Part shown: piece after piece, positions 6,082 to 30,089 of the stretch
Layout: each line of letters opens with the position of its first letter
Numbering within the stretch: position 1 is the stretch's first letter
From: an uncultured Gammaproteobacteria bacterium
GTDB taxonomy: Bacteria > Patescibacteriota > Microgenomatia > UBA8517 > JACQJR01
NCBI GenBank assembly: GCA_964363945.1
Contig: CAYIKF010000003.1
Location: 5,693-38,869 of the forward strand
Direction of reading: 5' to 3'
Length of the DNA stretch: 33,177 nucleotides
Translations under genes and position numbers: made by a program
The notes under the pieces: model-generated
Told to the model about the DNA's origin: nothing
Database searches by the model: none
Seen by the model: only the letters and a program-made list of their open reading frames with translations

Positions 6082-6083
6082 AT

Positions 6084-6111
6084 ACGATTTATGATTTACG
6101 ATTTAAGATTT
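6084..6111. repeat. tandem heptamer array A[C/T/A]GATTT x4 spanning a stop codon and an intercistronic junction
   Basis: ACGATTT ATGATTT ACGATTT AAGATTT. It encodes the last 7 codons (KILNRKS) plus the stop of the GT4 gene and runs into the 7-nt spacer before the manC start. Confidence 0.8.
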
Positions 6112-7198
6112 TTAGAAATTCCTTTTTGAACCTCTCTCTTGAGAATTTTTGTGCGTGTTTTTTTAAAATTTCAGGCTTGTACTTCGCTTTATTAAAGCTT
6201 TGTATCACCCGAGCCAACGCATCAGCATTTTGCTCCTCAAAAAACTCACCGGTTTCGCCCTCTATAACAGTTTCTGTTGCTCCGCCACTTTTATATGCAA
6301 TAACCGGTGTTCCCATTCTCTGTGCTTCAACTGTCACAATACCAAAATCTTCCTCTTGCGGGAAGATAAGGGCTGTTGCCTTTTCATAGTAGCGTGCGAG
6401 CTCCTCATCTGTCAAATGGCCAACAAAGGTAATAGTTGGCCCTGCCATACTTTTCAGTTTTCCTTCCTCTCTTCCAGTTCCAATGATAATAAGTGGAAGT
6501 TTTAATTGATTAAACGCCTCAATTGCCAAGTCAACTCGTTTGTAAGGTACTAGACGAGAAACAATGAGAAAATAGTTATTAGACTTTAGATTTTGGAGTT
6601 TAGTATTTAAATTTTTATCTCTAACATCTAAGGTCTTACGTCTAAAATCTAAACCAACTGGTGGATATATAACCTCTACCTCTCTCCCATAATATCTTTT
6701 TATCCTCTCCTTCACCGTCTCCGAAATTGCCACCATTACATCCGGTCGATGCGCCGCAATCTTATCCCATTTTCTTAAATAGGAAACTATAGGTTTTGTG
6801 AAAAACTTTGTTATGGGTTCTTTAAAGTATGCACCGTACCCACTCCACAAATACCGAGTCGGCGTTAAACAATAGCACAGGTGGAACGTTCCTGGTTTTG
6901 TAATTATCCCTTTTGCCGCCTCGCTCGTCACCGAAATCACCACATCATAGTTGTCAAAGTTTAAACTTTCAAATGCAAGAGGCATGAGAAGGGCATATAG
7001 TTCGTGAGTGGATGGTGCGTAAGGAAAATTTTGGAGGAATGAAGTTCTCACATCAAATACACGAGCCCATGGAGCAGTTCCAGGATTATAGACTGAGGTA
7101 TAAAGCGGAGCATTAGGAAACAACTCATGAAGTGCCAGTAGCACCCTCTCTGCCCCACCCCATTTATTCACTCTGTCATAAACTAGCGCTACACGCAT
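6089..7198 (-). CDS. GT4-family (GT-B fold) glycosyltransferase
   Basis: 369-aa ORF. C-terminal Rossmann domain with YFLIVSRLVPYKR ... IIGTGRE ... FPQEEDFGIVTVEAQRMGTPVIAYKSGGATETV (E-x7-E region). The stop abuts the start of manC. Confidence 0.85.
   Translation of the reverse strand: MRVALVYDRVNKWGGAERVLLALHELFPNAPLYTSVYNPGTAPWARVFDVRTSFLQNFPYAPSTHELYALLMPLAFESLNFDNYDVVISVTSEAAKGIITKPGTFHLCYCLTPTRYLWSGYGAYFKEPITKFFTKPIVSYLRKWDKIAAHRPDVMVAISETVKERIKRYYGREVEVIYPPVGLDFRRKTLDVRDKNLNTKLQNLKSNNYFLIVSRLVPYKRVDLAIEAFNQLKLPLIIIGTGREEGKLKSMAGPTITFVGHLTDEELARYYEKATALIFPQEEDFGIVTVEAQRMGTPVIAYKSGGATETVIEGETGEFFEEQNADALARVIQSFNKAKYKPEILKKHAQKFSRERFKKEFLKILNRKS
6574..6650. repeat. degenerate 7-nt periodic tract (six NNNNTTT-type units then five NNNNTCT units) with a 10-bp inverted repeat
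   Basis: AGTTATT AGACTTT AGATTTT GGAGTTT AGTATTT AAATTTT | TATCTCT AACATCT AAGGTCT TACGTCT AAAATCT. TTTAGATTTT (6585-6594) is the reverse complement of AAAATCTAAA (6644-6653). The tract encodes the linker LDVRDKNLNTKLQNLKSNN of the GT4. Confidence 0.6.
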
Positions 7199-8365
7199 TT
7201 ACACTGAATTATATACACGAAGTGTTTCTTTCGCCATATTTTGCCATGAGAATTGTTGGGCTCTTTTCTCGCCCTTTTCCACCATTCTTCGATGTTTCGA
7301 GTCATCAAGGCGCAATACTTCACCTATTTTTTGAGCAATATCACCAACATTGTAAGGATTAAAGTATGTTGCGGCATCACCGTAAATTTCATGGAAGACC
7401 GGAATATCAGAACATACCACGGGGCACCCTGCTGCCATTGCTTCAAGGCCAGGCAAACCGAATCCTTCAGATAAAGATGGAAAAACAAATGCTTTCGCGT
7501 TTTTATAAAGCAGTGCTAACTCATCATCAGGAACGAATCCTAAAAAGTTCACAAAAGAATCAGCTTTGATTTTGTTAACATATTGTATTAATCGGGCAGT
7601 GAAAACATTCCGTGCACTCACGATAACTAAATTGATATGCAATTGTTTTACTGCACTAATAAGTCTTTCTAAATTTTTATGCGGATACGCACTTCCTGTA
7701 TAGATAACGTAAAGTTTATTTATTAATGAATATTTATTAAGGATTTTCTGTGATTGGTGATTGCCGCCCTTGGCGAGCCTCGCCTTCGGCGGGGTGATTG
7801 GTGATTTGAAAGAATCGTCGATTCCTTCATAAATAACCGTCACCCTCTCTTCATCTAATCCATACTCTTTCAGCAACTCCTCCTTCACTGCTTGACTTGG
7901 AACAATGATCTTTCTAGCCTTGTGTACTGCATTGCTAAATACCATCTTATATCCTGTATACTTTAGCCAATAAAGAAACGGCGCACGTGTTGTGGTTGCG
8001 GATCCCCGGGAAGTATGTTTTATTAAATCATGAATTGTGACAACAAATGGGCGCTTAAAAAAAAATGGTACATTAAAGTGAGGGAAATGGGCCAAGTCGA
8101 AATCTAAATTATTCAAAATCTGAGGAAGTCTAATTTGTTCTTGAAAACTGTAATGAGGACAATCTGGTTTGATAATTTCCATTTTCCATTTTCCATTTTC
8201 CATTGATTTTCCAATTTCTAATTTTTCAATTTGTGAATTATTAACCAAAACCACATGCTCATTCGCTGTATCTACAAGTTTCAGTTGACCAACCAAGTTC
8301 ATCACGTATCTGCCAATACCTGCATGTTCTAGTCCATACATTCGTGCATCAATAAGTATCTTCAT
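7199..8365 (-). CDS. GT4-family glycosyltransferase (start moved to Met25 of the track ORF)
   Basis: Canonical GT4 N-terminus MKILIDARMYGLEHAGIGRY begins at 8365, which avoids overlap with the upstream gene ending at 8380. C-terminal block FPSLSEGFGLPGLEAMAAGCPVVCSD ... FSWQNMAKETLRVY. Confidence 0.85.
   Translation of the reverse strand: MKILIDARMYGLEHAGIGRYVMNLVGQLKLVDTANEHVVLVNNSQIEKLEIGKSMENGKWKMEIIKPDCPHYSFQEQIRLPQILNNLDFDLAHFPHFNVPFFFKRPFVVTIHDLIKHTSRGSATTTRAPFLYWLKYTGYKMVFSNAVHKARKIIVPSQAVKEELLKEYGLDEERVTVIYEGIDDSFKSPITPPKARLAKGGNHQSQKILNKYSLINKLYVIYTGSAYPHKNLERLISAVKQLHINLVIVSARNVFTARLIQYVNKIKADSFVNFLGFVPDDELALLYKNAKAFVFPSLSEGFGLPGLEAMAAGCPVVCSDIPVFHEIYGDAATYFNPYNVGDIAQKIGEVLRLDDSKHRRMVEKGEKRAQQFSWQNMAKETLRVYNSV
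7750..7807. repeat. copy 1 of a dispersed GC-rich hairpin element nested between GTGATTG heptamers (putative miniature mobile element), inside a GT4 ORF
   Basis: 7757..7806 is 48/50 identical to 17702..17751. The core 7764..7792 is CCGCC-CTT-GGCGAG-C-CTCGCC-TTC-GGCGG, a two-stem hairpin. Flanking GTGATTG GTGATTG lies at 7750-7763 and GTGATTG GTGATTT at 7794-7807. Confidence 0.9.
8176..8204. repeat. perfect tandem heptamer array TTTCCAT x4 inside a GT4 ORF
   Basis: Read directly. CC dinucleotides recur at 8179, 8186, 8193 and 8200. Degenerate CCAATTT / CTAATTT units follow. The array encodes MENGKWKME. Confidence 0.92.
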
Positions 8366-8379
8366 AATATCGCCTGTGT

Positions 8380-9291
8380 TTACCAAAAAAACTGTCTGTA
8401 CTTCTCTAAAACCCAAATTCCCATCCCCACTAGCCATAGGATTGGTGTTGGATAACGTCCCACATAATGTTTCTTATAAAAAATCCTCATTGCTTCAATA
8501 GACGCGCGTGTTGCCATCTTTCGTATCTCTTTTGTCGCCACAGATACTTCCTTTGTATGTTTTTTAATTCCTGAGGATACTCCTCTATAGTGCAAAATAG
8601 ATACAGTTGGAACATACATTATTTTCCAACCCGCTTTTTTTAACCTGAAACAGAAGTCAATATCTTCCCCATACCAAAAATAATCTTCATCCCACCAACC
8701 TACCTTTTCTCCGGCTTCACGACGAACTATCATAAATGCTCCGCTAAGTGCGTCTATTTCGTGGGTTGTGATTCTTGGAAGATAACCCATTGTGTATCCA
8801 GAGAATAAACGTAATTTTGGGAACAGTCGCTCAAGCCCAAAGAAGTGGCAAAAAGCATTCCAGGGAGTGGGGAAACCGCGATGTGCCGCTTCATCCAGTC
8901 CACCATCGGGGGATTTTAATTTACAAGTTGCAGCCCCAACCTGTGGATGTTTATCCATAAAGCGAGTCATAAAACTGAGGGTATTTGGATTTACAATTGT
9001 ATCCGGGTTCAAAAAAAGAATATACCGACCTTTTACATAAGGCACTGCAACATTATTTCCCTTGGAAAATCCAAAATTTTCTTTGTTTTCAATAACTTGA
9101 TACTTGATACTTGACACATGATACTTCTGAAGTGCTTCCACGCTTCCATCGGACGAGGCATTATCAACTACAAATATATCCCATATATATCCATTTTTCT
9201 TTGAATTTTCGATTGATTGAATACACTGAGTAACAAAATTTTTTGCGTTATAATTGAGAATCACAATTGAAAGATCTGGATGTGTTTTCAT
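8380..9291 (-). CDS. GT2-family (GT-A fold) glycosyltransferase
   Basis: 303-aa ORF. LSIVILNYNAKNF ... VVDNASSDGSVEAL ... NFGFSKGNN ... LFLNPDT (DxD-type) ... GAFMIVRRE ... FWYGEDIDFCFRLKKAGWKI. ATGA overlap with the upstream GT4 at 9288-9291. Confidence 0.88.
   Translation of the reverse strand: MKTHPDLSIVILNYNAKNFVTQCIQSIENSKKNGYIWDIFVVDNASSDGSVEALQKYHVSSIKYQVIENKENFGFSKGNNVAVPYVKGRYILFLNPDTIVNPNTLSFMTRFMDKHPQVGAATCKLKSPDGGLDEAAHRGFPTPWNAFCHFFGLERLFPKLRLFSGYTMGYLPRITTHEIDALSGAFMIVRREAGEKVGWWDEDYFWYGEDIDFCFRLKKAGWKIMYVPTVSILHYRGVSSGIKKHTKEVSVATKEIRKMATRASIEAMRIFYKKHYVGRYPTPILWLVGMGIWVLEKYRQFFW
9095..9129. repeat. tandem heptamer array ACTTGAT ACTTGAT ACTTGAC ACATGAT ACTTCTG inside a GT2 ORF
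   Basis: Read directly. It encodes KYHVSSIKYQV in the loop between the DGS..EAL helix and the VIEN strand. Confidence 0.85.
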
Positions 9292-11953: not shown

Positions 11954-13295
11954 GGCTTTCCCTCTTCATACGTGTATTAATAATTCCTACAGATATTCCC
12001 AGAAGTGTCCAAAATATAAGTGCCACCTTTGAGGCCTCAAATACATCAATAAATGCTGCATTCGCAAGCAATCCCACTGCTGCCCCTACTGTTCCCACAA
12101 CCAACACATCAGAGGAGGCAAGAGTGCCCCCGTTTGGCCGAAACTCCTGTAGGAATCCCCACATTTTCTGTCCAATCCTCATCAATACAAGAAAAAACGC
12201 CAGTGTACCCACCACTCCCACTTCCCCTAACATGCGAAGGTAATCATTATCTGTTGCAAGGGTGATAGAGGAAAATCCGGTCCCCAGCAGAGGATTCTTA
12301 GAGAACGCGCGCAGCGCCCTCGGCCATTCAACATTCAGACGAATTGCAGTTGAGCGGTCTTCGAAAGCTGGTGGTCGAGGAGCGGGAGGAGGAGACAAAC
12401 CTTCTTCTTGTGCCCAAGCAATTTTTGTTACCTCAACTCTCCCAAATAGCTGCTGTAGGGTAAATTTATACTTACCAGCCAAATCCGAACTAATTACAAA
12501 CGCGATACTTATTGCCATCATAAACACCAAAAAGGCTCGTTTCTTAAGGAACCAAAGCGTTACCACGAGTCCTACAAAGTACGCTGCGACGGAAATCCGA
12601 GAGGCAGCAGTCACGAGCAGCCACAAAAGACAGAGAGTAACGCCAAAGATAAGCGCTCTCCCTACAATATTCCTCAACGCAAAAAGATAGGCTATCCCTA
12701 TCGGAAGGGCAAGCACCAAAAATGCTGCCAAATCATAGTGACCCCCGAACGTCGAATGAAGCCGCGCTCCCGGCAACCATCGCAGTGCCAATCCTTTCGA
12801 AAATTCCGCATTTTGGGTTGAAATTACCGGAAAGCCAAAATGGATTTGTCCCAAGCCATACAAAAACACAAGAAACGCGGCGACCAGAAGCACCTCAATA
12901 AAGAAATATGCATGCTTTTCACTTCGCGCGAAGCTGTATGCAAGAAAGAAAGGAACAACGTATTCAATCCTTCTTACCCAATGAAGTAATCCTATATGCG
13001 GTACAACAGTGTGGGTTAAAAGGATACCGGAGGCAATTGACACCAACCCTGCTGCAAGGAACAGTAAGAATGCGCGGGTAATGCTGCTTTGAAAAAAAGG
13101 GCGATGATTTTGTACTAATTTTAACAAAAGAAATATCCCCAGAGCCGCGAGTAGAATATCTTCCATTCTCACTGCAACATACGTTCCCGGTATATTAAAA
13201 AGAGGAAACTTAGGATATAAAGGTATAGCAAGTAAAATTACCGCCAGACCCCATTTAAAAATAAAATTCTCAAATTCTACCAAGCGCGTGAACAT
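11937..13295 (-). CDS. O-antigen ligase / Wzy-type polymerase family membrane protein
   Basis: Polytopic ORF with a large Pro-rich extracytoplasmic loop (EEGLSPPPAPRPPAFEDRS) and a Wzy_C-like core (HSTFGGHYDLAAFLVLALP ... TAASRISVAAYFVG). The track ORF extends to 13346. Met18 (13295) is preferred because it shortens the overlap with the upstream gene. The exact start is uncertain. Confidence 0.68.
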   Translation of the reverse strand: MFTRLVEFENFIFKWGLAVILLAIPLYPKFPLFNIPGTYVAVRMEDILLAALGIFLLLKLVQNHRPFFQSSITRAFLLFLAAGLVSIASGILLTHTVVPHIGLLHWVRRIEYVVPFFLAYSFARSEKHAYFFIEVLLVAAFLVFLYGLGQIHFGFPVISTQNAEFSKGLALRWLPGARLHSTFGGHYDLAAFLVLALPIGIAYLFALRNIVGRALIFGVTLCLLWLLVTAASRISVAAYFVGLVVTLWFLKKRAFLVFMMAISIAFVISSDLAGKYKFTLQQLFGRVEVTKIAWAQEEGLSPPPAPRPPAFEDRSTAIRLNVEWPRALRAFSKNPLLGTGFSSITLATDNDYLRMLGEVGVVGTLAFFLVLMRIGQKMWGFLQEFRPNGGTLASSDVLVVGTVGAAVGLLANAAFIDVFEASKVALIFWTLLGISVGIINTRMKRESREENY

Positions 13296-14187
13296 AAATC
13301 CTACTCCTTGGTGTAATGATACCAAAAATAAACATGCGAAGGACACTTCCTATAAAAAGTAAAAGGCGCAAAAACGCAAAGGCCATTTTTGAATAATGTT
13401 TTTTGTAAAGAAGTTTGAGGCCCTCGAATTCACGAAGAACCGTTCCCTCTCTTGTTCCACTTGCTCCCCCGAAGTGGATTATTTTCGTTTTTGGAACATA
13501 CCACACCTCCCACCCCTTGGCTTTAGTCCGCATACAATATTCAACCTCCTCTACATAGAGAAAGAAGCTCTCATCAAACAAACCAATCTCGCGAACTACC
13601 TCTCGCCGAATTAAAAAAAATGCTCCTGTTACCCAATCAAGCGGCCGTTCTTTTGAATAAGCAGAGCTTGACTTCGTATAAAAAGACCTATGGGGATGGT
13701 ACGAGCCAAAAAAATCGCCTACAAATGGTACGTCATCAATGAGTGTTGCCCACAAGAACACTCGCGGTAAGGTCGGGGAAAATCCGCCTGTTGGTTGGAG
13801 CGTGCCATCGGCATTTACTAATTTACAACTGGCAATGCCAACCTTTGGATGCTCATCCATCCACATCACCATACTAAGTAAAGAATTCTCAATTAATTTT
13901 GTATCCGAATTAAGAAGTAGAATATAACGTCCCTTTGCCTTCTTCATCCCCTGATTATTCGCCGCCCCAAATCCCTTGTTATCTTTATTTGTTATAACCT
14001 GTAACCTGTAACCTGTAACTTTCAATTTGCGTAATGCTTCAACTGTTCCATCTGTTGAATTATTATCAATCACAATAATTTCATAGGTTATGTCCTTCGT
14101 ATACTTCTTCACTGACTCTATACACTTCAAAAGAAGTTCTTTTGTGTTATACGACACTATAATTATCGAAAGATCAACTATTTCCAT
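13270..14187 (-). CDS. GT2-family glycosyltransferase (paralog of 8380..9291)
   Basis: LSIIIVSYNTKELL ... VIDNNSTDGTVEAL ... NKGFGAANN ... LLLNSDT ... GAFFLIRREV ... FLYVEEVEYCMRTKAKGWEV. It is collinear with 8380..9291. The track start 14217 is possible, and Met11 (14187) gives a smaller overlap. Confidence 0.85.
   Translation of the reverse strand: MEIVDLSIIIVSYNTKELLLKCIESVKKYTKDITYEIIVIDNNSTDGTVEALRKLKVTGYRLQVITNKDNKGFGAANNQGMKKAKGRYILLLNSDTKLIENSLLSMVMWMDEHPKVGIASCKLVNADGTLQPTGGFSPTLPRVFLWATLIDDVPFVGDFFGSYHPHRSFYTKSSSAYSKERPLDWVTGAFFLIRREVVREIGLFDESFFLYVEEVEYCMRTKAKGWEVWYVPKTKIIHFGGASGTREGTVLREFEGLKLLYKKHYSKMAFAFLRLLLFIGSVLRMFIFGIITPRSRIYVHALGRI
13995..14019. repeat. perfect tandem heptamer array AACCTGT x3.6 inside the paralogous GT2 ORF
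   Basis: Read directly. It encodes KVTGYRLQV at codons collinear with the array at 9095..9129. Confidence 0.92.
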
Positions 14188-17243: not shown

Positions 17244-18410
17244 TTATTTTAAAATCCTTTCTAACACCTCTAATGTTTGTTGGGCTGCTTTTTGCCAGTC
17301 GAAGAGTTTGGTGCGCTCTAAGCCTTTTTTGGATAATGCGTCATAATTTTTAAGAGCCTCTTTTATCCCACGAGCAATATCTCCTGGATCGTCGGGATTC
17401 ACTAAAATTCCTGCATCTCCCACAACTTCAGGCAAACTTCCGACAGTTGAGACGACAACCGGTGTTCCTACTGCCATTGCCTCAACTACTGGAATTCCAA
17501 ATCCTTCCCAAAAACTAGGCAAGACAAAAACTAGAGCTCCTGCCATGAGAAGCGGCACATCATCATCTGGTATAAAGTCAGTAAAAACCACTTTATCCCG
17601 AAGGGGCAAGCTCCGCTTATCTTCTAAATCTAATTCTTTTACTTTTTTGAAAATTGATTCATATAACCAACCCTTTTTACCGGCAATAACAAGAGTGATT
17701 AGTGATTGCCGCCCATGGCGAGCCTCGCCTTCGGCGGGGTGATTAGTGATTAGTGAGAAAGCAGTCAGCAAACCTTCAATGTTCTTACTTGGTTTTAGCG
17801 TACTCAGAAAAAGAATATAATCATCTTTAATGTTGTATTTTTTCTTTACTTCTCTAATTTTAATTTTTGATATTTGATTTTTAAATTTATTTTTATCGTA
17901 TCCCGGATACGTAACCGTTATTTTTGAACGTGGAATTTTGTAATACCTGATAATGTCTCTTTTTGTGCTTTCTGAAATAGCAATGACGTGGTCTGACTTT
18001 TTAATAGAGTGGGCTGTCCAAGAAGTTAATTGGTAAAGATCGCGGCGTGTAAATTGATCGGGGTATCGCAAATACCCAAGGTCCATTATTGAAACAACTG
18101 TCGGAATAGGTGACCAACGAGGACGATAATGCCCTGGGGTAAAAAATACTTCGGGTCTTGGCTCGGCAAAAAAAAGAGAAAGAGGAAGCGCAAATTGAGT
18201 CCATAAACGCTTAGGGCCGAAGACTTTATATTTCCACCATGAAATTTCTTTGGGCATGTCAGGAAGGGGAGTATCACGTAAATAAATCATCCACTCATGT
18301 TTTTTTGCCTCTGGCAAGTTATACAAAGCATGGAGAAGTTCAAACGCATATTGGTTTGATCCAACACGCCGTTCTACATTTGCTTCATTGCCATCAACGC
18401 CGATTATCAT
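17244..18410 (-). CDS. GT4-family glycosyltransferase
   Basis: 388-aa ORF. MIIGVDGNEANVERRVGSNQY N-terminus, C-terminal block LPSFWEGFGIPVVEAMAVGTPVVVSTVGSLPEV, and tail FDWQKAAQQTLEVLERILK. Confidence 0.85.
   Translation of the reverse strand: MIIGVDGNEANVERRVGSNQYAFELLHALYNLPEAKKHEWMIYLRDTPLPDMPKEISWWKYKVFGPKRLWTQFALPLSLFFAEPRPEVFFTPGHYRPRWSPIPTVVSIMDLGYLRYPDQFTRRDLYQLTSWTAHSIKKSDHVIAISESTKRDIIRYYKIPRSKITVTYPGYDKNKFKNQISKIKIREVKKKYNIKDDYILFLSTLKPSKNIEGLLTAFSLITNHPAEGEARHGRQSLITLVIAGKKGWLYESIFKKVKELDLEDKRSLPLRDKVVFTDFIPDDDVPLLMAGALVFVLPSFWEGFGIPVVEAMAVGTPVVVSTVGSLPEVVGDAGILVNPDDPGDIARGIKEALKNYDALSKKGLERTKLFDWQKAAQQTLEVLERILK
17695..17759. repeat. copy 2 of the dispersed GC-rich hairpin element nested between GTGATTA/GTGATTG heptamers, inside another GT4 ORF
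   Basis: GTGATTA GTGATTG + CCGCCCATGGCGAGCCTCGCCTTCGGCGG + G + GTGATTA GTGATTA GTGAGAA. It is on the same strand as copy 1 but is read in a different codon phase. Confidence 0.9.
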
Positions 18411-18427
18411 ATATTAATGCATGATAA

Positions 18428-19519
18428 TTACACTACACTCCGATATACTTCTAATGTTTCCCTTGCTGCTTTCTCCCATGAGAACTGTTTTACTCGAGCC
18501 AATCCTTTCTTAATGAATTCTCCCCTTTTGGAAAGCACGCGTTCAATCCCTCTTCTTATATCATCAACATCCTCCGGGTTTACCAAAACTGCCGCGTCCC
18601 CTGCTACCTCGGGCATACTTGAGATGTTAGACGTTACTACCGGACATCCGCACGCCATTGCTTCTAAAATTGGCAAACCAAACCCTTCGTATAGGGAAGC
18701 GTAAATAAGCGCTTGTGCACCACTATAAAGTGCGGAGAGTTCGCTTCTTGAAACATGACCAATCCACAAAATATTGTCCCGCGGAGCGGGATCCTGCTTC
18801 GCGGGATGCGACCACCTTTTTCCCACAACAACCAATGGCGGTGCATCGGGAATGAGTGTAAGTGCTTGAGCTACATTTAATAGATTTTTTCGCGGATCTG
18901 CTCCTACTGCAAGCAGGAAATGCCGTGGAAGACCAAATTTCTTTTTTACCTCCCCTACCCTCTTATCCCCTACTTTTCTATAAATTGCATCCGGCGCCTC
19001 ATACACTACTGAAATTTTTTCCGCCGGAATTCCCAAATAAGTTATGATGTCATTTTTGGTAGCTTCCGATACTGCTATCACCCGTTCACATTCTCTCTTT
19101 ACCCACTTAAGCTGTCTTTTGTGTACTGCAATAATCTTAGGATGTGAACTCTCTGGGTATAAAAGCGGCACTAAATCATGCACTGTAGTAACCAGTTTTG
19201 CTTTTCTTGATGGTGGTTGTGTCCAATTAGAAGAATGGAACACATCAACCGAACCCACAAAATTTTCAATTGGAAAGATGTGAAGCCGATTCCATAAAAG
19301 GTCAAGCATCATTGGAGATAAAGGATAAAACTTTTTTGTGAAATTACCTGAAAGGTCCTTGCTAAAATGATTTAAATCAGGCAAACGGCGCATGGCACCA
19401 CCGAAGAGGAAATACTCATCTTTTTTATCAAACGAGAGGAGTGCGTGTACCAAATTCCTTGTATACCACGAAACGCCAGTCTCATAAACTATTTGCGAAA
19501 TATCTATTCCAATCTTCAT
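18428..19519 (-). CDS. GT4-family glycosyltransferase
   Basis: 363-aa ORF. MKIGIDISQIVYETGVSWYTRNL N-terminus, block ASLYEGFGLPILEAMACGCPVVTSNISSMPEV, and tail FSWEKAARETLEVY. Confidence 0.85.
   Translation of the reverse strand: MKIGIDISQIVYETGVSWYTRNLVHALLSFDKKDEYFLFGGAMRRLPDLNHFSKDLSGNFTKKFYPLSPMMLDLLWNRLHIFPIENFVGSVDVFHSSNWTQPPSRKAKLVTTVHDLVPLLYPESSHPKIIAVHKRQLKWVKRECERVIAVSEATKNDIITYLGIPAEKISVVYEAPDAIYRKVGDKRVGEVKKKFGLPRHFLLAVGADPRKNLLNVAQALTLIPDAPPLVVVGKRWSHPAKQDPAPRDNILWIGHVSRSELSALYSGAQALIYASLYEGFGLPILEAMACGCPVVTSNISSMPEVAGDAAVLVNPEDVDDIRRGIERVLSKRGEFIKKGLARVKQFSWEKAARETLEVYRSVV
18777..18806. repeat. 30-nt GC-rich near-perfect palindrome embedded in-frame in a GT4 ORF
   Basis: TCCCGCGGAGCGGGATCCTGCTTCGCGGGA. 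The outer 7-bp stem is TCCCGCG/CGCGGGA. The inner arms pair with two G-U positions around a GATC loop. It encodes PAKQDPAPRD. Confidence 0.85.
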
Positions 19520-20972
19520 CTTGAGTTAATTGTACGCCTCGCTCGTATTCGAACACAAACCCCACTCCTCGGAAGTTATATGTTGCTACCTTAACAAAAC
19601 CCTTCTCGTCTAATGTCTTTTCAACTACCCCCTCAGGATCATTTATCTCGACCAAATATTGAAAAACAAAAATTTGCTCTCTCTCTTTTATAATTTGGTC
19701 AAGTCCAGGATTCAAACCCCCTACACCATCAACAATCCCTTTTGAATACCAAGAAAAACCAGGCATCACACTTTTGCTCTCAAAAAGAACAAGAACGCCA
19801 GGAGTTGCTTTTTGTTCAATAAAGGATACTGCCCCTCTCCAATCTTCTCTCTGAAAGCGTGAATTGAAAAGATAGATACCACTTGAAACTATATTAACCA
19901 AAAGTAACCCAACCACCATTATCAACCTCACTTTACTGTTTTTAAATGAAAGCGCGCCAAATGCCGCGAGTAAATAAAATGGGGGTAATAAGAAAATGAG
20001 CCGAAAATAGGAAAATACTGAAACTTTGAGTCCCACCAGAGCCACTGCGAGAATAGGTAATGTAAACCATACCCATAAAAAACTAGTCCGCTGCCACAGA
20101 GTAACACTTTTGAGGAAAACGCTCGCAAAAAGCACAGTTGGAATAACAAGCAACGCGGCATAAAGCACACTATTTTCTGCCGATATTCTCCCAATCATAA
20201 ATTTAATAGGTACTAAAGCAAGCTCTTTTACGTTCGTTCCGCCCAGCACATTCCACCATTGGGGGTTAGTCATTTGTACACCCAAGCCTGCCGCAAGTTG
20301 CCCAAATAATATCGGAACCCAAGGTAAAAAAAGGAAAAGAATGGCTATGGTAGCTAACAACCAGTTGGTAACACTCTTTTTAAGATGTTTTCTTTCGAAC
20401 ACGAGTAAATACAAAGCGAAAAATAGAAAAAGAAAAACGGGGAGATAATCGGTATAGAGAAGAAGTGTACTTACAATTACTAATCCCACCCAATCCGACG
20501 CTTGCTGTTTTTTCGCTTTGATAATTTTCAAGAAAAACAAAACTGAAAGGGTTGTAAAAAACACTGCCGGAACATACATTCGTGCTTCTTGAGAATAGTA
20601 AATGTGTAAACCTGAAGTTGCCAAAAAAAGAGCTGCAACTTCAGGAAATTTCCAATTTCCAATTTCCAATTTCCAATTAATTTGTTCAATTAAAATTTTC
20701 CCAATTAAGAAAACTACCCAAATTGTAGCAACACCAAACAAAACTGAAAGCATACGTATAGCGACCTCCGATGTACCAAAAACTTGTATAAAGAAGTGGA
20801 GTATCAAGTAGTAAAGTGGTGGGTGAAAGTCACCAGGAGAGAATTGTGCTAAAATTTCGGCAACAGAAAAGTCGCGTGCCACTAACGCGCTTGTCGCCTC
20901 ATCATGCCAAAAAGATTGGTTAAGGGAAATCAGTCTAAGTAAAAACCCAAGTATAAGAATTACGAAAATCAC
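19482..20972 (-). CDS. polytopic GT-C membrane glycosyltransferase (PMT_2 / ArnT-like)
   Basis: 496-aa multi-TM ORF. The N-terminus LLRLISLNQSFWHDEATSALVARDF ... FHPPLYYLILHFF is typical of the PMT_2/ArnT family. The GTG start forms a GTGA overlap with the upstream GT2 gene (20969-20972). Confidence 0.78.
   Translation of the reverse strand: MIFVILILGFLLRLISLNQSFWHDEATSALVARDFSVAEILAQFSPGDFHPPLYYLILHFFIQVFGTSEVAIRMLSVLFGVATIWVVFLIGKILIEQINWKLEIGNWKFPEVAALFLATSGLHIYYSQEARMYVPAVFFTTLSVLFFLKIIKAKKQQASDWVGLVIVSTLLLYTDYLPVFLFLFFALYLLVFERKHLKKSVTNWLLATIAILFLFLPWVPILFGQLAAGLGVQMTNPQWWNVLGGTNVKELALVPIKFMIGRISAENSVLYAALLVIPTVLFASVFLKSVTLWQRTSFLWVWFTLPILAVALVGLKVSVFSYFRLIFLLPPFYLLAAFGALSFKNSKVRLIMVVGLLLVNIVSSGIYLFNSRFQREDWRGAVSFIEQKATPGVLVLFESKSVMPGFSWYSKGIVDGVGGLNPGLDQIIKEREQIFVFQYLVEINDPEGVVEKTLDEKGFVKVATYNFRGVGFVFEYERGVQLTQDEDWNRYFANSL
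20647..20678. repeat. perfect tandem heptamer array AATTTCC x4.5 inside a GT-C ORF
   Basis: Read directly. CC recurs at 20652, 20659, 20666 and 20673. It encodes NWKLEIGNWKF in a loop between TM segments. Confidence 0.92.
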
Positions 20973-21811
20973 TTTGCTCCTCTACCTGTCATCCGATATT
21001 CTAAAATTCCTATAAAAATTCCAAAATCATAAACAATCTTAAAGATGAGAAAATGCGGCGTTTTATTAAGGATAGATTTTACCAGTCCTACTACTAGTGA
21101 TACCGGTAAAGACGCGCGAAATAGTGCAAAAGTTGCTCCGAGGATTCCCAATTTATACTCTCTTTTAGCAACCCAATGCGCGTGGTTAAAAACTTCAGAA
21201 AGATTACTGGGATTTGCATGATAAAACTTAGCATCAGGGGCAGCTACTGCTTCATATCCAAGTTTCTGACTTAAACTCCAATCATCCGTATAATACCCAC
21301 CAAGTTCAAATCCTCCTACCTTATCAAACTCACTTTTTAAAAGTGCTCTGAAAACCTTCTGTGTGGGTGGGTAGTTTTTAGGATGGCGCTTTCTCTCCTC
21401 CCAACCCTCATTTATATTCCAACACAGCGCCCACACATTTTCCCAGTTTGAGACATATTCCTCACGACTCCACGTGCCGCTTGCGTTCCCTCTTATTATT
21501 GGTGCAACCAACTTCTCTATAAAGTCCCTCTCAAACGTCATATCCGCATCAACAAAAACGAGTATTTCTCCTTTTGCATGGGTTGCTCCCAAATTCCTCG
21601 CCTCACCTGGTCCCTTATGTTTCTGTTCAAAAATTCTTAAATCGTACTTCTTAAATCTTAAATCTCCGACAATACTAAGGGTATTGTCGATCGAGCCATC
21701 ATCTACAACAATTACCTCTATTTTTTTGTAAGTTTGTTCGCACAAAGATTCCAAACACTTGTTAATTGTTTCCTCTTCGTTATAAGTAGGAATAATAACT
21801 GTGACTTTCAT
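20969..21811 (-). CDS. GT2-family glycosyltransferase with hydrophobic C-terminal segments (possible polyprenyl-phosphate sugar synthase, GtrB/CsbB/Ppm-like)
   Basis: 280-aa ORF. VTVIIPTYNEEETI ... VVDDGSIDNT ... VFVDADMTF, followed by C-terminal hydrophobic stretches (LGILGATFALFRASLPVSLVVGLV, FLIFKIVYDFGIFIGIL). It is translationally coupled to the downstream GT-C gene. The lipid-carrier role is inference. Confidence 0.8.
   Translation of the reverse strand: MKVTVIIPTYNEEETINKCLESLCEQTYKKIEVIVVDDGSIDNTLSIVGDLRFKKYDLRIFEQKHKGPGEARNLGATHAKGEILVFVDADMTFERDFIEKLVAPIIRGNASGTWSREEYVSNWENVWALCWNINEGWEERKRHPKNYPPTQKVFRALLKSEFDKVGGFELGGYYTDDWSLSQKLGYEAVAAPDAKFYHANPSNLSEVFNHAHWVAKREYKLGILGATFALFRASLPVSLVVGLVKSILNKTPHFLIFKIVYDFGIFIGILEYRMTGRGAK
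21636..21665. repeat. tandem heptamer array CTTAAAT CGTACTT CTTAAAT CTTAAAT inside a GT2 ORF
   Basis: Read directly. It encodes DLRFKKYDLRI, again in the loop following the DDGS.DNT motif. Confidence 0.8.
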
Positions 21812-21877
21812 TTTGAGCCTAAGTGAGAAACAAGCTCTGCTTATTTTGAACGTCAGTGAGAAACAAGCTCTGCTTAT
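21811..21877. repeat. 33-nt tandem duplication (30/33 identical, with a perfect 23-mer AGTGAGAAACAAGCTCTGCTTAT x2) filling the intercistronic spacer
   Basis: Units are 21811-21843 and 21844-21876. On the coding strand each unit starts with TAAGCAGAGCTTGTTTCTCACT. The first TAA (21876-21874) is the stop of the GT4 gene, and the array ends at the ATG of the GT2 gene (21811). Confidence 0.9.
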
Positions 21878-22884
21878 AATTTTTTAAATAATTCTTCATA
21901 CTGCTTTGCAATTTTGTCCCAAGAGAATTTTTCTGCTTGACGACGAGGTTTGTCTCCCTGTTTGGCATTCAGTGCCTTTTTCAGAGCGGCAGCATAAGCA
22001 TTTGTATCTGTTGGATTAACTAAAATCCCCGCATCACCTACTATTTCTTCCCTTATCAAGTCATTATTTGCAACCACGGGTAGGTTTGTCGCCATTGCCT
22101 CAACAAGAACAATTTCAAAAGAATGGTAGGATTCTGAAGGAATAGTAAATACATCCGCTACCCTATACGCAGTAGGCAACTCTTCATATGACATTTTAAT
22201 TAATTGAAACTGCTCGCCAAGAAGCTTCATCCCTAACTTGTGTATTTTTTCTCTTAGTGGACCATCCCCTACCACCAAAATACTCGCGTTCCCAAACGCA
22301 GCTGTCGCTTTAATTGCCAAGTCAACTCTTTTACCCACAGTTAATGCTGCAACGCAAAGCACAATTGGATGCTTTAATTGAGTAGAAAATTTTCGACCGC
22401 TGGGTGAGAACTTTTGTAAATCCACACCATTAGGGATATATTGAACTCTCACCAGCGGATTCGCTTTTTTAGCCCAATCTCCTGCAAAACTTGAAATAGC
22501 CACAAAAACATTTGGAAAACTCCATAAATTATGTCTGTCATCCCATCCCATCCCCGACTGTCCACTGATTATCACTTTCCCACCATATAACCATGTAACA
22601 ATACGAACAAACGTTGACTGCCATCCACCATTCAATGGAATAACAATATCAAATTTCTCCTTCCAAAGGAGAGGAAGGGTTTTGAGTGTAAACCACAATA
22701 TGTAGAGACCGTTAGGATCGACAAAAAAGTGCCAGACAAAAGGCCATCTCTTTGGTGGAATTTTATTTCCACTCATTACCACAATCTCATGGTTTCTTTT
22801 TAATCTTTCCGAGAGCTCCCGCACGAATGTCTCTGCACCCCTTTGCACCTGGCCTTGATAAATATTTAAAAATACCACTCTCAT
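21874..22884 (-). CDS. GT4-family glycosyltransferase (start at Met8 of the track ORF)
   Basis: MRVVFLNIYQGQVQRGAETFVREL N-terminus. The ATG at 22884 forms an ATGA overlap with the upstream stop. C-terminal block IPSESYHSFEIVLVEAMATNLPVVANN ... FSWDKIAKQY. Confidence 0.85.
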   Translation of the reverse strand: MRVVFLNIYQGQVQRGAETFVRELSERLKRNHEIVVMSGNKIPPKRWPFVWHFFVDPNGLYILWFTLKTLPLLWKEKFDIVIPLNGGWQSTFVRIVTWLYGGKVIISGQSGMGWDDRHNLWSFPNVFVAISSFAGDWAKKANPLVRVQYIPNGVDLQKFSPSGRKFSTQLKHPIVLCVAALTVGKRVDLAIKATAAFGNASILVVGDGPLREKIHKLGMKLLGEQFQLIKMSYEELPTAYRVADVFTIPSESYHSFEIVLVEAMATNLPVVANNDLIREEIVGDAGILVNPTDTNAYAAALKKALNAKQGDKPRRQAEKFSWDKIAKQYEELFKKL

Positions 22885-24272
22885 TTTGCGCGCTCCCATA
22901 GCCAAACTCCCGGCTTTACTTCTTCCTCTTTAGTATAGTGCTCCTCTATCCAGCGAACAATTTTTTGTGGTTGATAAGTCCCTAAGTCAAACCAGTTTCC
23001 CGGGGAAGGTGTACGCCAGAAAATAAAGTGTGGTGGCCCACCAGCTGACGAATTTTCCCAGCGGGCGATAATTTCCTCCTGAACGCCAGGAATTTCAAGA
23101 TACCATCCGAAATTGTCAGTCCAACGTTTTGGGGGAACTCTCCCTGCCATTACATAAAGTCCTGAGTGGAGACCCAATAGAAAAACTTTTTCGCTCTGCG
23201 GAACTTTACTTTGAATCGTTTGTGCTAATTCCAAATCCTCTTTTGCGTAAAACCGTGTTTCTCTTCCCCACTCGCTAGAAAGGAGCGGACGATGGATAGC
23301 AAAGAAGATAAGTAATAAGTAAGAAGTAATAAGTAATAACTTAAATCTTTTTATTTTCATTTGATTAAAAAGCAAACCATAAAGAATAACCAGAAAAACG
23401 AGAGCTGTTTGAAAGTGAAAAAAAGAAAAACGAGGATAGATTATGATAAGCGCAATTACTAGAAAGGGGAATAAAACTTGAAATACTGAATCTTTAAGAA
23501 TTTCCTTATTCTTAATGATGATAATTAAAAGTGGCACAAGTAAAAAAATACTTATAAATGCTTGCCCAGGAGATACCTCCATATGCACATATCCCGGAAA
23601 TTTACCAAACTGCGTAAGAGGATAAATAATTGTCCAGTTTAAAAAATCAACGAGCGCTCCCTCTTGTAAAAGCCTAATCAAAAGTGGAATCCCTAAAATC
23701 AAAGGACCATAAAATAAGTATTTCAATTGATTAAAACTTGTTTTCTTAATAAGAAGTAAATATAAAATAGTAAATAACAAATATAATCCTGCTGTTTGTT
23801 TGGTAAGAGCAGCCGCTGCAAAAAATAATCCTGCCAAGAATAAATTATGTCTTAACAAAAATAGTGTTCCCAAAAGGATTGGGAGAACAATTGCAATATC
23901 AAACCATAGCATGTTTCCTTCGAGAAAGGGCTGCAAAAAGATATACGCCGCAACGGCAAAAAACGCCGGTGCATCGCGGCGGGTTGTGGAGCGAGTAATA
24001 ATAAACACAAGAATATCACTTACAAGAATTACCGCCCATGCTACACTTTTGAGTACCCAAAGATGATAGCCAAAAAGCGTGTACGCCCACGAAAGTGCCA
24101 TGGTAAGAAGCGGAGGATACGGATGAATCATATCTTTATAGATGAGAAATCCGTGATTACGAAGATAAGAATACGAAAGCATCTCAGGCCAGGCAGTAAA
24201 TTGAAGATTGGCTAGGAAAAAAAAGTGAAGCCCCAGTAGTAAAACAATCAGAATGTATGTCCCATATCTCAT
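22881..24272 (-). CDS. polytopic membrane protein, putative GT-C-type glycosyltransferase
   Basis: The ORF was trimmed to Met51 (MRYGTYILIVLLLGLHFFF) because that ATG forms an ATGA overlap with the methyltransferase stop (24269-24272). It has about 12 hydrophobic segments followed by a soluble C-terminal domain. The architecture is ArnT/PMT-like. The family call is tentative. Confidence 0.55.
   Translation of the reverse strand: MRYGTYILIVLLLGLHFFFLANLQFTAWPEMLSYSYLRNHGFLIYKDMIHPYPPLLTMALSWAYTLFGYHLWVLKSVAWAVILVSDILVFIITRSTTRRDAPAFFAVAAYIFLQPFLEGNMLWFDIAIVLPILLGTLFLLRHNLFLAGLFFAAAALTKQTAGLYLLFTILYLLLIKKTSFNQLKYLFYGPLILGIPLLIRLLQEGALVDFLNWTIIYPLTQFGKFPGYVHMEVSPGQAFISIFLLVPLLIIIIKNKEILKDSVFQVLFPFLVIALIIIYPRFSFFHFQTALVFLVILYGLLFNQMKIKRFKLLLITSYLLLIFFAIHRPLLSSEWGRETRFYAKEDLELAQTIQSKVPQSEKVFLLGLHSGLYVMAGRVPPKRWTDNFGWYLEIPGVQEEIIARWENSSAGGPPHFIFWRTPSPGNWFDLGTYQPQKIVRWIEEHYTKEEEVKPGVWLWERAK
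23310..23339. repeat. tandem heptamer array AAGTAAT AAGTAAG AAGTAAT AAGTAAT inside a membrane-protein ORF
   Basis: Read directly. It encodes LLITSYLLLI, part of a TM segment. Confidence 0.85.
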
Positions 24273-25090
24273 ACTTTTTGTGCAATAACTGTTACTCCAC
24301 TCCCCATTCCCATCTTTATTAAAATAAAAGAAGGAAGGAAAGTTATAATATTCGTAAAAAATCGTTTTCTTAGTTTTACCAAACTCTGCCAGATTTCTTT
24401 CGCGGGATTTCCATAGTTCCATACTCCTGAATGTGTTTCACAATAAAGCATTTTAAATCCTACTTTTTCCAAAAGAAGTGAGAGCGCTTGAGGAGTAAAG
24501 TGCCAGCGATGCTCTTTTGGTAAAATATAAGCCCAATGAGCACCCCATATCCGTGCAGTTAGACTTGCAAAATTTGGAGCATCAATAAAAATAAGCCCGT
24601 CTTTTTTCAAAACAGCATTTGCCTTCTGTAAGACCTCTAGTGGATTTTCCATATGCTCAAGAACATGGTTAAAAATAATAAGATCAAAACTGTTGTGAGA
24701 GATGTCAGCATTTTCAAAGGTCGCAACTATTGTTGGAATTTTTCTCTTTTGTGCGGCAGAAGCGGCTGGTTTTGATGGTTCAATTCCTTGGACTTCCCAG
24801 TCTTGCTGCTTTAATAGGGATAAAAAAATTCCAGTGGATGAACCAATCTCAAGAACTTTGCCCTTCTTTTTGAACTTAGAAATTATCTTCACCCTTTTTT
24901 CAAAAATATTCCTAAACTGTTCTTTTTCTTTGATGTAAACCTGATCTCTGTGGTAAGCAGCATATTGTCGTTGCTTACCTCTTTGCTCTGTAGCGCCTAA
25001 GCCACAAGCTTTGCACTGCAAAATTTTAATTCCTTCATTTTCACCTAAAAGCTTAAATCTTTTCCCACAACTGATACACTTTCTATTCAT
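24269..25090 (-). CDS. class I SAM-dependent methyltransferase with N-terminal Cys4 zinc-ribbon
   Basis: 273-aa ORF. CISCGKRF...CKACG ribbon, motif I VLEIGSSTGIFLSLL, and FDLIIFNHVLEHMENP. Confidence 0.85.
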   Translation of the reverse strand: MNRKCISCGKRFKLLGENEGIKILQCKACGLGATEQRGKQRQYAAYHRDQVYIKEKEQFRNIFEKRVKIISKFKKKGKVLEIGSSTGIFLSLLKQQDWEVQGIEPSKPAASAAQKRKIPTIVATFENADISHNSFDLIIFNHVLEHMENPLEVLQKANAVLKKDGLIFIDAPNFASLTARIWGAHWAYILPKEHRWHFTPQALSLLLEKVGFKMLYCETHSGVWNYGNPAKEIWQSLVKLRKRFFTNIITFLPSFILIKMGMGSGVTVIAQKV

Positions 25091-25972: not shown

Positions 25973-27243
25973 TTTTGTGCGCGCAGTGCGTGCCATGCGG
26001 CTGTGAAACTCACTATCATTGTCAAAAGATTAACCATCCCTAATGCGAACACCGGCGCGAAAACACCAATTTTGGGAATGAGGTAAAAGTTGACAAGAAG
26101 CACAAGAGGAAGGGTAACAAGCGATGTTGCGGCAATAATATATGGTTTTTGGAACGCATAAATTAAAAGATTGACCGCGGGAGTAGCAAGGGCGAACGGA
26201 ATGTACACCGCAAGCAACGCTTGTAGTACCACACCTGAACTTGCGTATTGCGGCCCGAAAAGTGTAATGATAAAGGGAGCAATAAGGATACCAAGTATTA
26301 AACCTATGGAAATAATAACAGAAATTCCCATTGCCCGCTTAAAATAAGAGACGAGGGCTTTCTCTCCTAGAGACGCGTAACTTGGAGCCAAAACTGTTGC
26401 AAAGCTACCTATAATAAGTGGAACGCCCAAGGCAACACTGCTCGCGGCTGAGTAAATGCCAGCTTGATACGTACCCGCAAGCTGGAGAAGCAACAATACA
26501 TCCACCCTTGAATTAACTGAAGAAACAACCCTATTTACACTCATCCAAGAGGAGAACGCCGCAATCTCGCGTATCATCTTCTTCCACCCTGGAACAAAAC
26601 CAATTGATACCCGCTGCCAAAAGAGTGAAATAAACCACGAAAAGATTGGGGCTGCGGCGAACACAAAAAGCACGCTCATAATGTTTATAATTCCTGCCAA
26701 GAAAACCACCGCAAGAAACACCATACGTAGAATATTAGTAAGAGTTATAAAAAGAGCAGCTTGCCTCCAATTTTGTTTTACCTCGCTTGTTACCACTTGA
26801 AAATCCATAAGTAAAAACCCAAATAGGGAAAGGGCGGCAAAAATAATAAGAAACATCTCTTCTTGCTTAAAAATTAAAAGCGAGAGTGGGCGGGCAAAGA
26901 GCAAAAGCGCTAAAACTAAAAAGATGCCAATTACAACTCTTACAGTAAATAGTGCAGACAGAACTGTTCGAGCCTCTCCCAATTTCCCAGAACTCCACTT
27001 TGCGGAAACAAACCGAAAAAGTGCAGCCCCCAGTCCCAGCTCCCCTACAGCAAAAATAATGGTGGTAAAGCTGGCAACAGCTGCAACTATTCCCCAATTC
27101 TCTGGTCCAAGAAACCGTGCAGCCACAATTGTAAATACGATTGCCAAAGCAGAAGAAACAGCATTACCCACAAATACTATCGAGGCATCCTTTGTCACCC
27201 TTGAGAAAACAAGCTCTCGGACTTGTGTCAATAGTTCAAACAT
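25969..27243 (-). CDS. MOP-superfamily oligosaccharide flippase (Wzx-like)
   Basis: About 424-aa polytopic ORF from Met16 (MFELLTQVRELVFSRVTKDASIVFVGNAVSSALAIVFTIVAARFLGPENWG), a typical Wzx/polysaccharide-biosynthesis-protein N-terminus with about 12 TM segments. Confidence 0.78.
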   Translation of the reverse strand: MFELLTQVRELVFSRVTKDASIVFVGNAVSSALAIVFTIVAARFLGPENWGIVAAVASFTTIIFAVGELGLGAALFRFVSAKWSSGKLGEARTVLSALFTVRVVIGIFLVLALLLFARPLSLLIFKQEEMFLIIFAALSLFGFLLMDFQVVTSEVKQNWRQAALFITLTNILRMVFLAVVFLAGIINIMSVLFVFAAAPIFSWFISLFWQRVSIGFVPGWKKMIREIAAFSSWMSVNRVVSSVNSRVDVLLLLQLAGTYQAGIYSAASSVALGVPLIIGSFATVLAPSYASLGEKALVSYFKRAMGISVIISIGLILGILIAPFIITLFGPQYASSGVVLQALLAVYIPFALATPAVNLLIYAFQKPYIIAATSLVTLPLVLLVNFYLIPKIGVFAPVFALGMVNLLTMIVSFTAAWHALRAQK

Positions 27244-29941: not shown

Positions 29942-30089
29942 ACAAAACCTGCCATAAGACACTCACAAGAAGCAAAACATAAAGATAGTTTGTTATTTTG
30001 ATGGCGAATCCTGGATGATTGGTTGCTAAAAGAAAACCAACAACTAAAAATCCAGCTAGAGAGAAAAGAAGTAGCAAATTTCTTAGCAT
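29925..30089 (-). CDS. candidate 54-aa two-TM small membrane protein (below the ORF-track cutoff)
   Basis: Hand translation of the minus strand from the ATG at 30089 gives MLRNLLLLFSLAGFLVVGFLLATNHPGFAIKITNYLYVLLLVSVLWQVLYDTKV, with TAA at 29927-29925. It overlaps the ATG of the large membrane protein gene by 17 nt. There is no homology evidence. Confidence 0.3.
   Translation of the reverse strand: MLRNLLLLFSLAGFLVVGFLLATNHPGFAIKITNYLYVLLLVSVLWQVLYDTKV

Follow-up and report, generated by a model that had tools for sequence, protein, structure and literature searches.

The DNA analysed here, called the window throughout, is a stretch of 33,177 nucleotides (nt) with 39.7% G+C, nearly all of which is a glycan-synthesis locus with its genes on one strand. 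It raises the question why two paralogous genes for family-2 glycosyltransferases, GT2-A (13270..14187, minus strand) and GT2-B (8380..9291, minus strand), carry tandem arrays of two different 7-nt units at the same aligned codons. A preliminary description of the sequence regarded this as a signature of concerted evolution, i.e., of an array older than the split of the paralogs that was later homogenised within each copy by slippage or conversion. The nearest named relatives of the window are Candidatus Microgenomates and Woesebacteria, both belonging to the candidate phyla radiation (CPR). The answer favoured here, which we hold with somewhat better than even confidence, is that the arrays are heptanucleotide tracts prone to replication slippage and probably serve as contingency (phase-variation) loci for surface glycans in CPR bacteria. 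The slippage-tract and hot-spot parts of this reading are well supported; slippage as the mechanism, frequent and reversible switching, and an adaptive role are what we infer.

GT2-A encodes a family-2 glycosyltransferase of the GT-A fold with 305 amino acids (aa) counted from the ATG at 14187, as assigned by PF00535 (106.5 bits), AlphaFold2 and Foldseek. GT2-B is its paralog with 37% aa identity (PF00535, 88.7 bits), and a more distant third paralog, GT2-C (20969..21811, minus strand; PF00535, 128.5 bits), is 28% identical to GT2-A in a three-way alignment; all three genes score above the Pfam cutoff for PF00535 of 23.3 bits. Heptamer array A extends over five units at codons 54-65 (13994..14028, minus strand). 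Its exact part is GTTACAG x3.6 (25 nt, 13995..14019; TAACCTG x3.6 on the plus strand), and the coding strand reads GTT ACA GGT TAC AGG TTA CAG GTT A, which corresponds to V57-V64 and the first base of I65. Array B lies at codons 56-67 (9092..9126, minus strand), the same aligned codons as array A, and consists of AAGTATC (ACTTGAT on the plus strand) x4.6 with 84% identity at 9095..9126, including 20 nt of exact repeat at 9095..9114. The degenerate array C of GT2-C occupies codons 50-61 (21630..21664, minus strand) and shares its alignment columns with arrays A and B; its units are GATTTAA GATTTAA GAAGTAC GATTTAA GAATTTT.

The location of arrays A and B at homologous codons was confirmed both by the sequences and by the alignment of the two proteins, which is gap-free across the array site (37% identical, BLASTP 6e-60). 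Set in codon register, the two arrays fill the same 35 aligned nt positions, reading AAATTGA AAGTTAC AGGTTAC AGGTTAC AGGTTAT in A and AAGTATC ATGTGTC AAGTATC AAGTATC AAGTTAT in B. The units agree at 4/7 positions, as the preliminary description had reported, and this register gives the best match among the seven possible rotations; the value equals the background identity of the two paralogs. The same register and the same 3/7 differing positions, from which concerted evolution had been deduced, are automatic for any two ungapped period-7 arrays and contain no information on it. The expectation that the paralogous arrays are more alike than their flanks did not hold either: nucleotide identity is 21/35 in the array, 38/60 upstream and 32/60 downstream, so the A and B arrays resemble each other no more than their surroundings do.

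The shared position itself is not a product of chance, and in this respect the preliminary description was right. Exact period-7 runs of at least 17 nt occur seven times in the window, compared with 0.06 on average and never more than 1 in composition-preserving shuffles, and no exact runs of this length were found for periods 6 and 8-12. The period-7 pattern is also present in CPR loci and not in Paenibacillus or Chloroflexi loci. In a survey of 268 GT2 genes from the window and 169 further loci, period-7 windows were scored by their matches out of 21, with at least 17/21 defined as strong and at least 14/21 as the weaker cut-off. The segment between helix alpha2 and strand beta3 (residues 54-61 of GT2-A) holds 12 of the 17 strong windows; these 12 windows span all three GT2 subfamilies and at least 10 genomes or contigs, and the same survey yielded 1-3 windows for periods 6, 8 and 9 and none for periods 5, 10 and 11. 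That the alpha2-beta3 codon block is a genuine recurrent heptamer hot spot in at least three GT2 subfamilies is well supported.

The placement on a loop and strand that had been expected for the array agrees with the AlphaFold2 model of GT2-A (mean predicted local distance difference test score, pLDDT, 86.9), which has a GT-A fold and, as top Foldseek matches, the GT-A enzymes WrtF and GalNAc-T2. The model has a helix at residues 48-53, a loop at 54-60 and a strand at 61-66, and array A is predicted to map to the alpha2-beta3 loop (54-60) and to the stretch with which strand beta3 begins (61-66). This location bears on a neutral explanation, which we regard as possible and clearly less probable than contingency loci. 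It proposes that the arrays are a by-product of a slippage bias towards 7-nt units, that they survive wherever any peptide is tolerated (surface loops, gene ends, spacers) and have no switching role, and that the co-location in paralogs reflects common structural tolerance alone. Judged by the model and by general knowledge of Rossmann-like folds, the loop probably lies at the N-terminal end of strand beta3, off the ligand-binding edge, which is in line with such tolerance. Tolerance alone does not agree well with the other GT2 regions that are comparably variable in sequence and length (residues 25-32, 153-184 and 241-256), where just 0-2 arrays were found, as against 12 at the site. A constraint at the protein level was rejected as the cause of the period, because a repeat of 7 nt does not translate into any short period of amino acids and the encoded peptides are unrelated.

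How stable the arrays are can be seen from four sets of relatives: a syntenic locus from GCA_964442455.1 (L001), whose orthologous proteins are 70-96% identical; a closer strain (L087) with 94-95% DNA identity to the window; a Microgenomates genome (L007) with a GT2-A homolog that is 63% identical; and a Woesebacteria locus (L015) carrying a GT2-C-type ortholog. The GT2-A array is present in L087 at the same length with one synonymous change. In L001 the site reads GTAGCAG GTAAAAA GTTACAA, which is degenerate, of the same length and with 15/21 period-7 matches; an origin of the GT2-A array before the split from L001 is supported, as far as the compared sequences indicate. The L007 site has a different unit, AATTTAA (vs GTTACAG in the window). 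At the GT2-B site, AAGTATC in the window corresponds to AATTTCC in L087, with divergence raised just upstream, as would be expected under allele replacement, and the L001 ortholog shows weak periodicity (12/23). The GT2-C site is of the GATTTAA type in the window, a perfect ACTGTTC x4.4 in L001 and GAAATTC x4.6 in L015, with identical total length. Among the orthologous arrays compared, only the window and L087 have a unit in common, at GT2-A. The position of the site is conserved and the unit sequence is not; orthologs bear unrelated units even at 94-95% identity.

Some further observations were made on the same genes. The Logan contig of L087 ends inside the AATTTCC array of its GT2-B ortholog (11328-11355), which fits an array long enough to break assembly at k = 31. 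At 3769-3792 of L087, the ortholog of the GT4 gene 17244..18410 (GT4 being another glycosyltransferase family of the locus) contains TCAGGTA x3.4, a unit nearly the same as that of the GT2-B array of the window, and the window is without an array there. GT2-A itself has a 21-nt (7-aa, YTKSSSA) insertion at 13661-13681 relative to L087 and L001, which is not heptamer-periodic and is flanked by TTAT direct repeats. The two largest indels within open reading frames (ORFs) between the window and L087 are each exactly 21 nt.

Copy number was also found to change in nature. The gene for a PMT_2 membrane transferase (19482..20972, minus strand) carries GGAAATT x4.6 at codons 99-109 (20647..20678, minus strand), and this array is polymorphic: the 97% identical allele P0127 on contig L087 has 1.6 units, a difference of exactly 21 nt or three units, and the more distant L001 ortholog is without an array. 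The 1.6 versus 4.6 units together with the missing array in L001 indicate a recent expansion in the lineage of the window. A change of a single unit was detected at the GT2 site in Woesebacteria, where the L170/L172 haplotype has exactly one GAAATTC unit fewer than L015 (x3.6 vs x4.6). This allele, with one unit lost, splits the GT2 gene into ORFs of 87 aa and 196 aa, an OFF state. Nine haplotypes of this Woesebacteria population have been assembled, with 98-99.4% identity among them, and L170/L172 is one of these; between L172 and L173 the 7-nt deletion is the sole indel in 11.8 kb, apart from a compensated 1-nt shift common to other haplotypes. Three other candidates were set aside: a GT4 cluster in L161, which differs at the C-terminus and whose split allele lies away from the array; a cluster in L145, in which the length difference is a 10-aa non-array insert; and P0180, not used since its assembly (L171) has several fragmented genes, probably owing to sequencing error. 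An assembly artefact is unlikely as the source of the arrays, since four to five assemblies made independently contain them. Arrays of 32 nt are shorter than k + 7 at k = 31, so that k-mer collapse should leave array length unchanged.

These results decide largely against an ancestral array, i.e., one that stood at the codon block before the GT2 paralogs diverged and whose units were then homogenised by slippage or conversion. This model could account for the hot spot across three GT2 subfamilies, for the conserved segment length, for the degenerate array of the same length in L001 GT2-A, and for the codon-aligned register being the best of the seven rotations. The distribution among genes is difficult to reconcile with it. 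Only about 12% of low-GC GT2 genes reach 14/21 at the site (at most 2% in blocks elsewhere, 1% for high-GC genes), and their mean maximum score there is 9.0 versus 7.5-8.9 in other blocks, so little raised that it speaks against remnants of an ancient array being widespread. In most genes of the A, B and C subfamilies the site holds ordinary, non-repetitive sequence of the same length, and segment length is alike within each subfamily whether an array is present or absent. Units do not track the gene tree either, as the unrelated units of orthologs in strains 94-95% identical demonstrate; the expansion of the PMT_2 array is recent, and the agreement of A and B in their array and in the three differing positions carries no weight, for the reasons given above. 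The preliminary description had named non-repetitive DNA in relatives of both lineages as the observation that would count against it: for the B lineage, with only 12/23 in L001, this standard speaks against the claim. Of the claim that the arrays are turning over, the change of copy number in nature stands, and homogenisation since before the paralog split does not. By the preliminary description's own standard the ancestral-array model is largely refuted, and we consider it highly unlikely. The case is a caution that the common position and register of two repeats are no evidence of common ancestry.

Under the favoured reading, the arrays would be heptanucleotide simple-sequence repeats that arise and change by replication slippage, and those of the three paralogs and their orthologs would be independent and relatively young. 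They may be seeded from local codons, e.g., Leu-Gln-Val and Lys-Tyr-Gln at the start of strand beta3. The bases common to the A and B units (CA.GT) are the homologous Gln-Val codons at this place; TTACAGG, the unit of A, agrees with the Leu-Gln-(Val) codons, kept as TTA CAA GTT in the L001 ortholog, and AAGTATC, the unit of B, with the Lys-Tyr-(Gln) codons. Given these matches to local strand-beta3 codons, arrays A and B look as if each grew upstream out of homologous local codons. The alpha2-beta3 surface segment would have to tolerate an arbitrary peptide of 7-12 residues and fixed length, and the hot spot falls early in the gene, at about 20% of gene length. Because 7 is not a multiple of 3, gain or loss of one or two units shifts the frame and truncates the enzyme, while a change of three units (21 nt) leaves the frame intact. 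In-frame growth needs either three-unit jumps or frameshifted intermediates, which implies that OFF states are tolerated or used in glycan genes. The at least nine tracts in the one glycan locus would most likely vary the cell-surface glycan stochastically, and across related CPR genomes of the Microgenomates group such tracts cluster strongly in glycan genes.

The genes in which arrays occur are relevant to both the contingency and the neutral explanations. In 1.25 Mb of low-GC loci, of which glycan-type genes make up 36% of the sequence, 36 of the 42 exact arrays lie in or at most 60 nt from glycan-type genes (binomial p = 4e-11), and two of the remaining six are in proteins named O-antigen ligase family by NCBI. 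Exact arrays with a length of at least 18 nt number 52, and 39 of them are inside long intact ORFs; unlike intergenic heptamer repeats of one unit, the arrays are mainly within ORFs and their units are diverse across loci. The in-ORF arrays have a positional mode at 0.19-0.25 of relative gene length (13 of 34 arrays; raw positions). For a contingency tract, a location towards the N-terminus, so that a frameshift yields a null product, has been given as a criterion (PMC3315296). The location inside enzymes, the one structural position across paralogs and the concentration in glycan genes are features beyond a general excess of heptamers.

Several observations weigh against contingency loci, and some of them agree well with the neutral explanation. 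Heptamer repeat excess in many bacteria is ascribed to polymerase slippage or the polymerase footprint, according to the passages on Mrazek (2007) in PMC4692102 and PMC4679880, and on this ground no function is required. The arrays are short (3.6-5.7 units) and nearly all in frame, including all 12 site arrays in the surveyed loci; 13 of the 52 arrays are not within any long intact ORF, most of these being intergenic or at the 3' end of a gene, and the in-ORF arrays have a second positional mode in mid-gene (0.46-0.68). No change of copy number was found for array A in the near-identical L005, L006, L088 and L089, and it is the same in L087; array B is unchanged in L005, the only near-identical contig that covers it. 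Array A keeps its length in L087 and is degenerate in L001, differing there at 6 of about 25 positions, which is compatible with decay at about the background rate (an estimate by eye) and bears little resemblance to active homogenisation. The single OFF allele belongs to one of nine haplotypes of one Woesebacteria population and is known from the assembly consensus. A search of the loci for adjacent tblastn matches in different frames detected no frameshifted GT2 at the site; the single case found was unrelated and came from a GC-rich genome. On the other side, the neutral explanation has to deal with the concentration in and near glycan-type genes, with the few arrays in equally variable GT2 regions, with the tolerance of OFF states in exactly these genes that in-frame growth of a non-triplet unit implies, and with the natural OFF allele.

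Contingency loci with similar features are known from animal pathogens. Phase variation of the Neisseria glycosyltransferase gene pglE is controlled by a heptanucleotide repeat (PMC7157529), in-ORF heptanucleotide repeats of Haemophilus influenzae were proposed as mediators of phase variation (PMC2651432), and Campylobacter jejuni has phase-variable simple-sequence repeats in surface-modification genes (PMC8437040, PMC6321876). As in the Neisseria and Campylobacter loci, the repeat here is a non-triplet one within the ORF of a surface-glycan enzyme, many tracts share one glycan locus, there is a concentration in surface-structure genes, and a one-unit change produces a frameshifted allele, seen here in the Woesebacteria population. 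The differences are that the hosts here are free-living or episymbiotic groundwater CPR bacteria, that only 7-nt units are used and the tracts are short (3.6-5.7 units), that an internal structural loop and not the extreme N-terminus is affected, and that the position is common to paralogs and the unit sequence is not; high-frequency reversible switching is in this case what we infer.

Lineage-specific heptamers, mostly intergenic, include GGGAATC in Xanthomonas, GGGGA(C/T)T and three Calothrix tandem heptanucleotides in cyanobacteria, and TAACTGA in Beggiatoaceae. The arrays described here share with them a length and sequence that vary between close relatives, and with the prokaryotic heptamer excess in general the preference for a 7-nt unit, usually in 2-6 copies, for which polymerase slippage has been proposed. 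They differ from the lineage-specific heptamers, each with one favoured unit, in their diverse units, their concentration in glycan genes and the 39/52 arrays inside intact ORFs. The tandem repeats in ORFs of Borg elements (PMC9879509) are likewise fast-evolving, of recent and independent origin within genes, and placed in permissive protein regions. Unlike in the Borg elements, the unit here is 7 nt, a change of a single unit shifts the frame, and the arrays replace a structured segment of fixed length. The Borg units are reportedly multiples of 3 that build disordered regions.

Repeat-driven frameshift switching of glycosyltransferases, including that by 7-nt units, is already known. New here are the CPR lineage, the exclusive use of 7-nt units, a conserved GT-A "socket" across paralogs and orthologs with turnover of the units, and the replacement of the segment with its length kept. 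In the literature library searched, no paper was found that ties CPR bacteria to phase variation or simple-sequence repeats. Bacteria of the CPR (Patescibacteria) are of tiny size and for the most part uncultivated, and attachment to other cells is common among them. If the tracts act as switches, a 25-kb glycan locus with at least nine independent heptanucleotide switches would provide a Campylobacter-like repertoire of stochastic surface variants, and phage or host cells would be the likely pressures. For the enzymes, one structural position of the fold can serve as a reusable socket for repeat tracts across paralogs.

The other genes of the locus contain further arrays. The locus includes six GT4 and four GT2 glycosyltransferase genes, two PMT_2 membrane transferases, a Wzy_C protein, a flippase, a sugar-phosphate transferase, a nucleotidyl transferase, a methyltransferase and several membrane proteins, and is flanked by the genes for a prolyl-tRNA-synthetase-like enzyme and RecO. 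Contigs identical to the window are present in Hainich groundwater metagenomes. Besides GT2-A and GT2-B, exact 7-nt arrays are located inside at least six other ORFs, and in-frame arrays beyond the GT2s occur in two GT4 genes, the PMT_2 gene described above and two membrane-protein genes (all on the minus strand). The GT4 gene 7199..8437 carries ATGGAAA x4.1 at 8176..8204, with a degenerate extension over 8174..8224, and its L001 ortholog has degenerate ACTGACT-type heptamers at the array site. In the membrane-protein gene 22881..24422, TTACTTA x4.6 is located at 23308..23339, and TATTGCC x3 stands at the corresponding place in L001. The gene for a 908-aa membrane protein (27236..29962) contains TTTTACT x5.3 at 29007..29043. 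A TAAATCN array (coding strand; 6086..6111) runs across the final codons and the stop codon with which the GT4 gene 6089..7198 ends, adjoining the start of the next gene, and AATTTCT x2.6 was found at the same gene end in L001. A degenerate CCAAATT-like tract of 8.7 copies with 68% identity lies at 66-123, in the spacer downstream of the prolyl-tRNA-synthetase-like gene, so that period-7 repeats are not restricted to coding sequence. A longer repeat, the 33-nt unit ATTTTGAACCTAAGTGAGAAACAAGCTCTGCTT x2.1 with 91% identity (21810-21877), occupies the entire spacer that separates the end of the GT4 gene 21874..22905 from the start codon of GT2-C.

Similarities between these arrays have a bearing on another explanation, namely that array segments, some with a GC-rich palindrome, were spread by ectopic conversion or an unknown mobile mechanism and landed in frame in permissive loops, which we consider very improbable. 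One case is a 65-nt module at 7750-7814 and 17695-17759, in which a GC-rich palindrome of about 30 nt stands between two pairs of heptamers. With 91% identity between them, the two copies are located in frame in two different GT4 genes, at non-homologous positions. The heptamers are AATCACC or AATCACT, and the palindrome CCGCCGAAGGCGAGGCTCGCCAWGGGCGG is predicted to form a hairpin of -10.7 to -11.4 kcal/mol (z about -3). The module is missing from the orthologs in L001 and L087, which have other hairpin or 8-mer inserts there. The heptamers were also considered as target-site-duplication footprints of the palindrome, and this was rejected as a general cause, because the palindrome occurs just twice in the window and, among 89 loci, only in the organism's own contigs, and also because the flanking heptamers belong to the repeated 65-nt module.

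A second similarity exists between the arrays at 23310-23356 and 29008-29054, with 87% identity over 47 nt that take in a shared flank of 14 nt, AAATCTTTTTATTT (plus strand). The membrane-protein genes to which they belong (22881..24422 and 27236..29962) have no homology that BLASTP could detect (E about 1), a hint that segments with arrays may be copied between genes. Likewise, the array with which the GT4 gene 6089..7198 ends (6080-6117) and array C (21626-21663) are 82% complementary over 38 nt, and thus represent the same GATTTAA-type segment in opposite orientations. AATTTCC/GGAAATT arrays recur across genes and genomes, and the wholesale array replacement between strains 94-95% identical fits portable cassettes. 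Against such spreading, the arrays of one locus elsewhere mostly have unrelated units (L145, L013, L067), AT-rich sequence of low complexity inflates chance similarity, the palindrome core was confined, among 89 loci, to this organism's own contigs, no associated enzyme was identified, and the PMT_2 polymorphism is a clean three-unit change in place. That array segments copied between unrelated genes would act as portable frameshift-switch cassettes re-arming CPR glycan genes is a long shot.

The palindromic elements of Rickettsia, reportedly described by Ogata et al. in 2000, are said to be selfish inserts lying in frame in protein-coding genes. The 65-nt module resembles them as a hairpin-forming in-frame insert in enzyme genes with near-identical copies at unrelated positions. 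It differs in having two copies only, a much shorter core of about 30 nt and flanking direct repeats of heptamers, and its mobility is putative. In L001, the interdomain linkers of the GT4 orthologs at 5981-7144 and 18561-19715 contain GC-rich inserts, in frame and about 22 and 40 codons long, and the counterparts of these inserts in the window are AT-rich or degenerate heptamer sequence.

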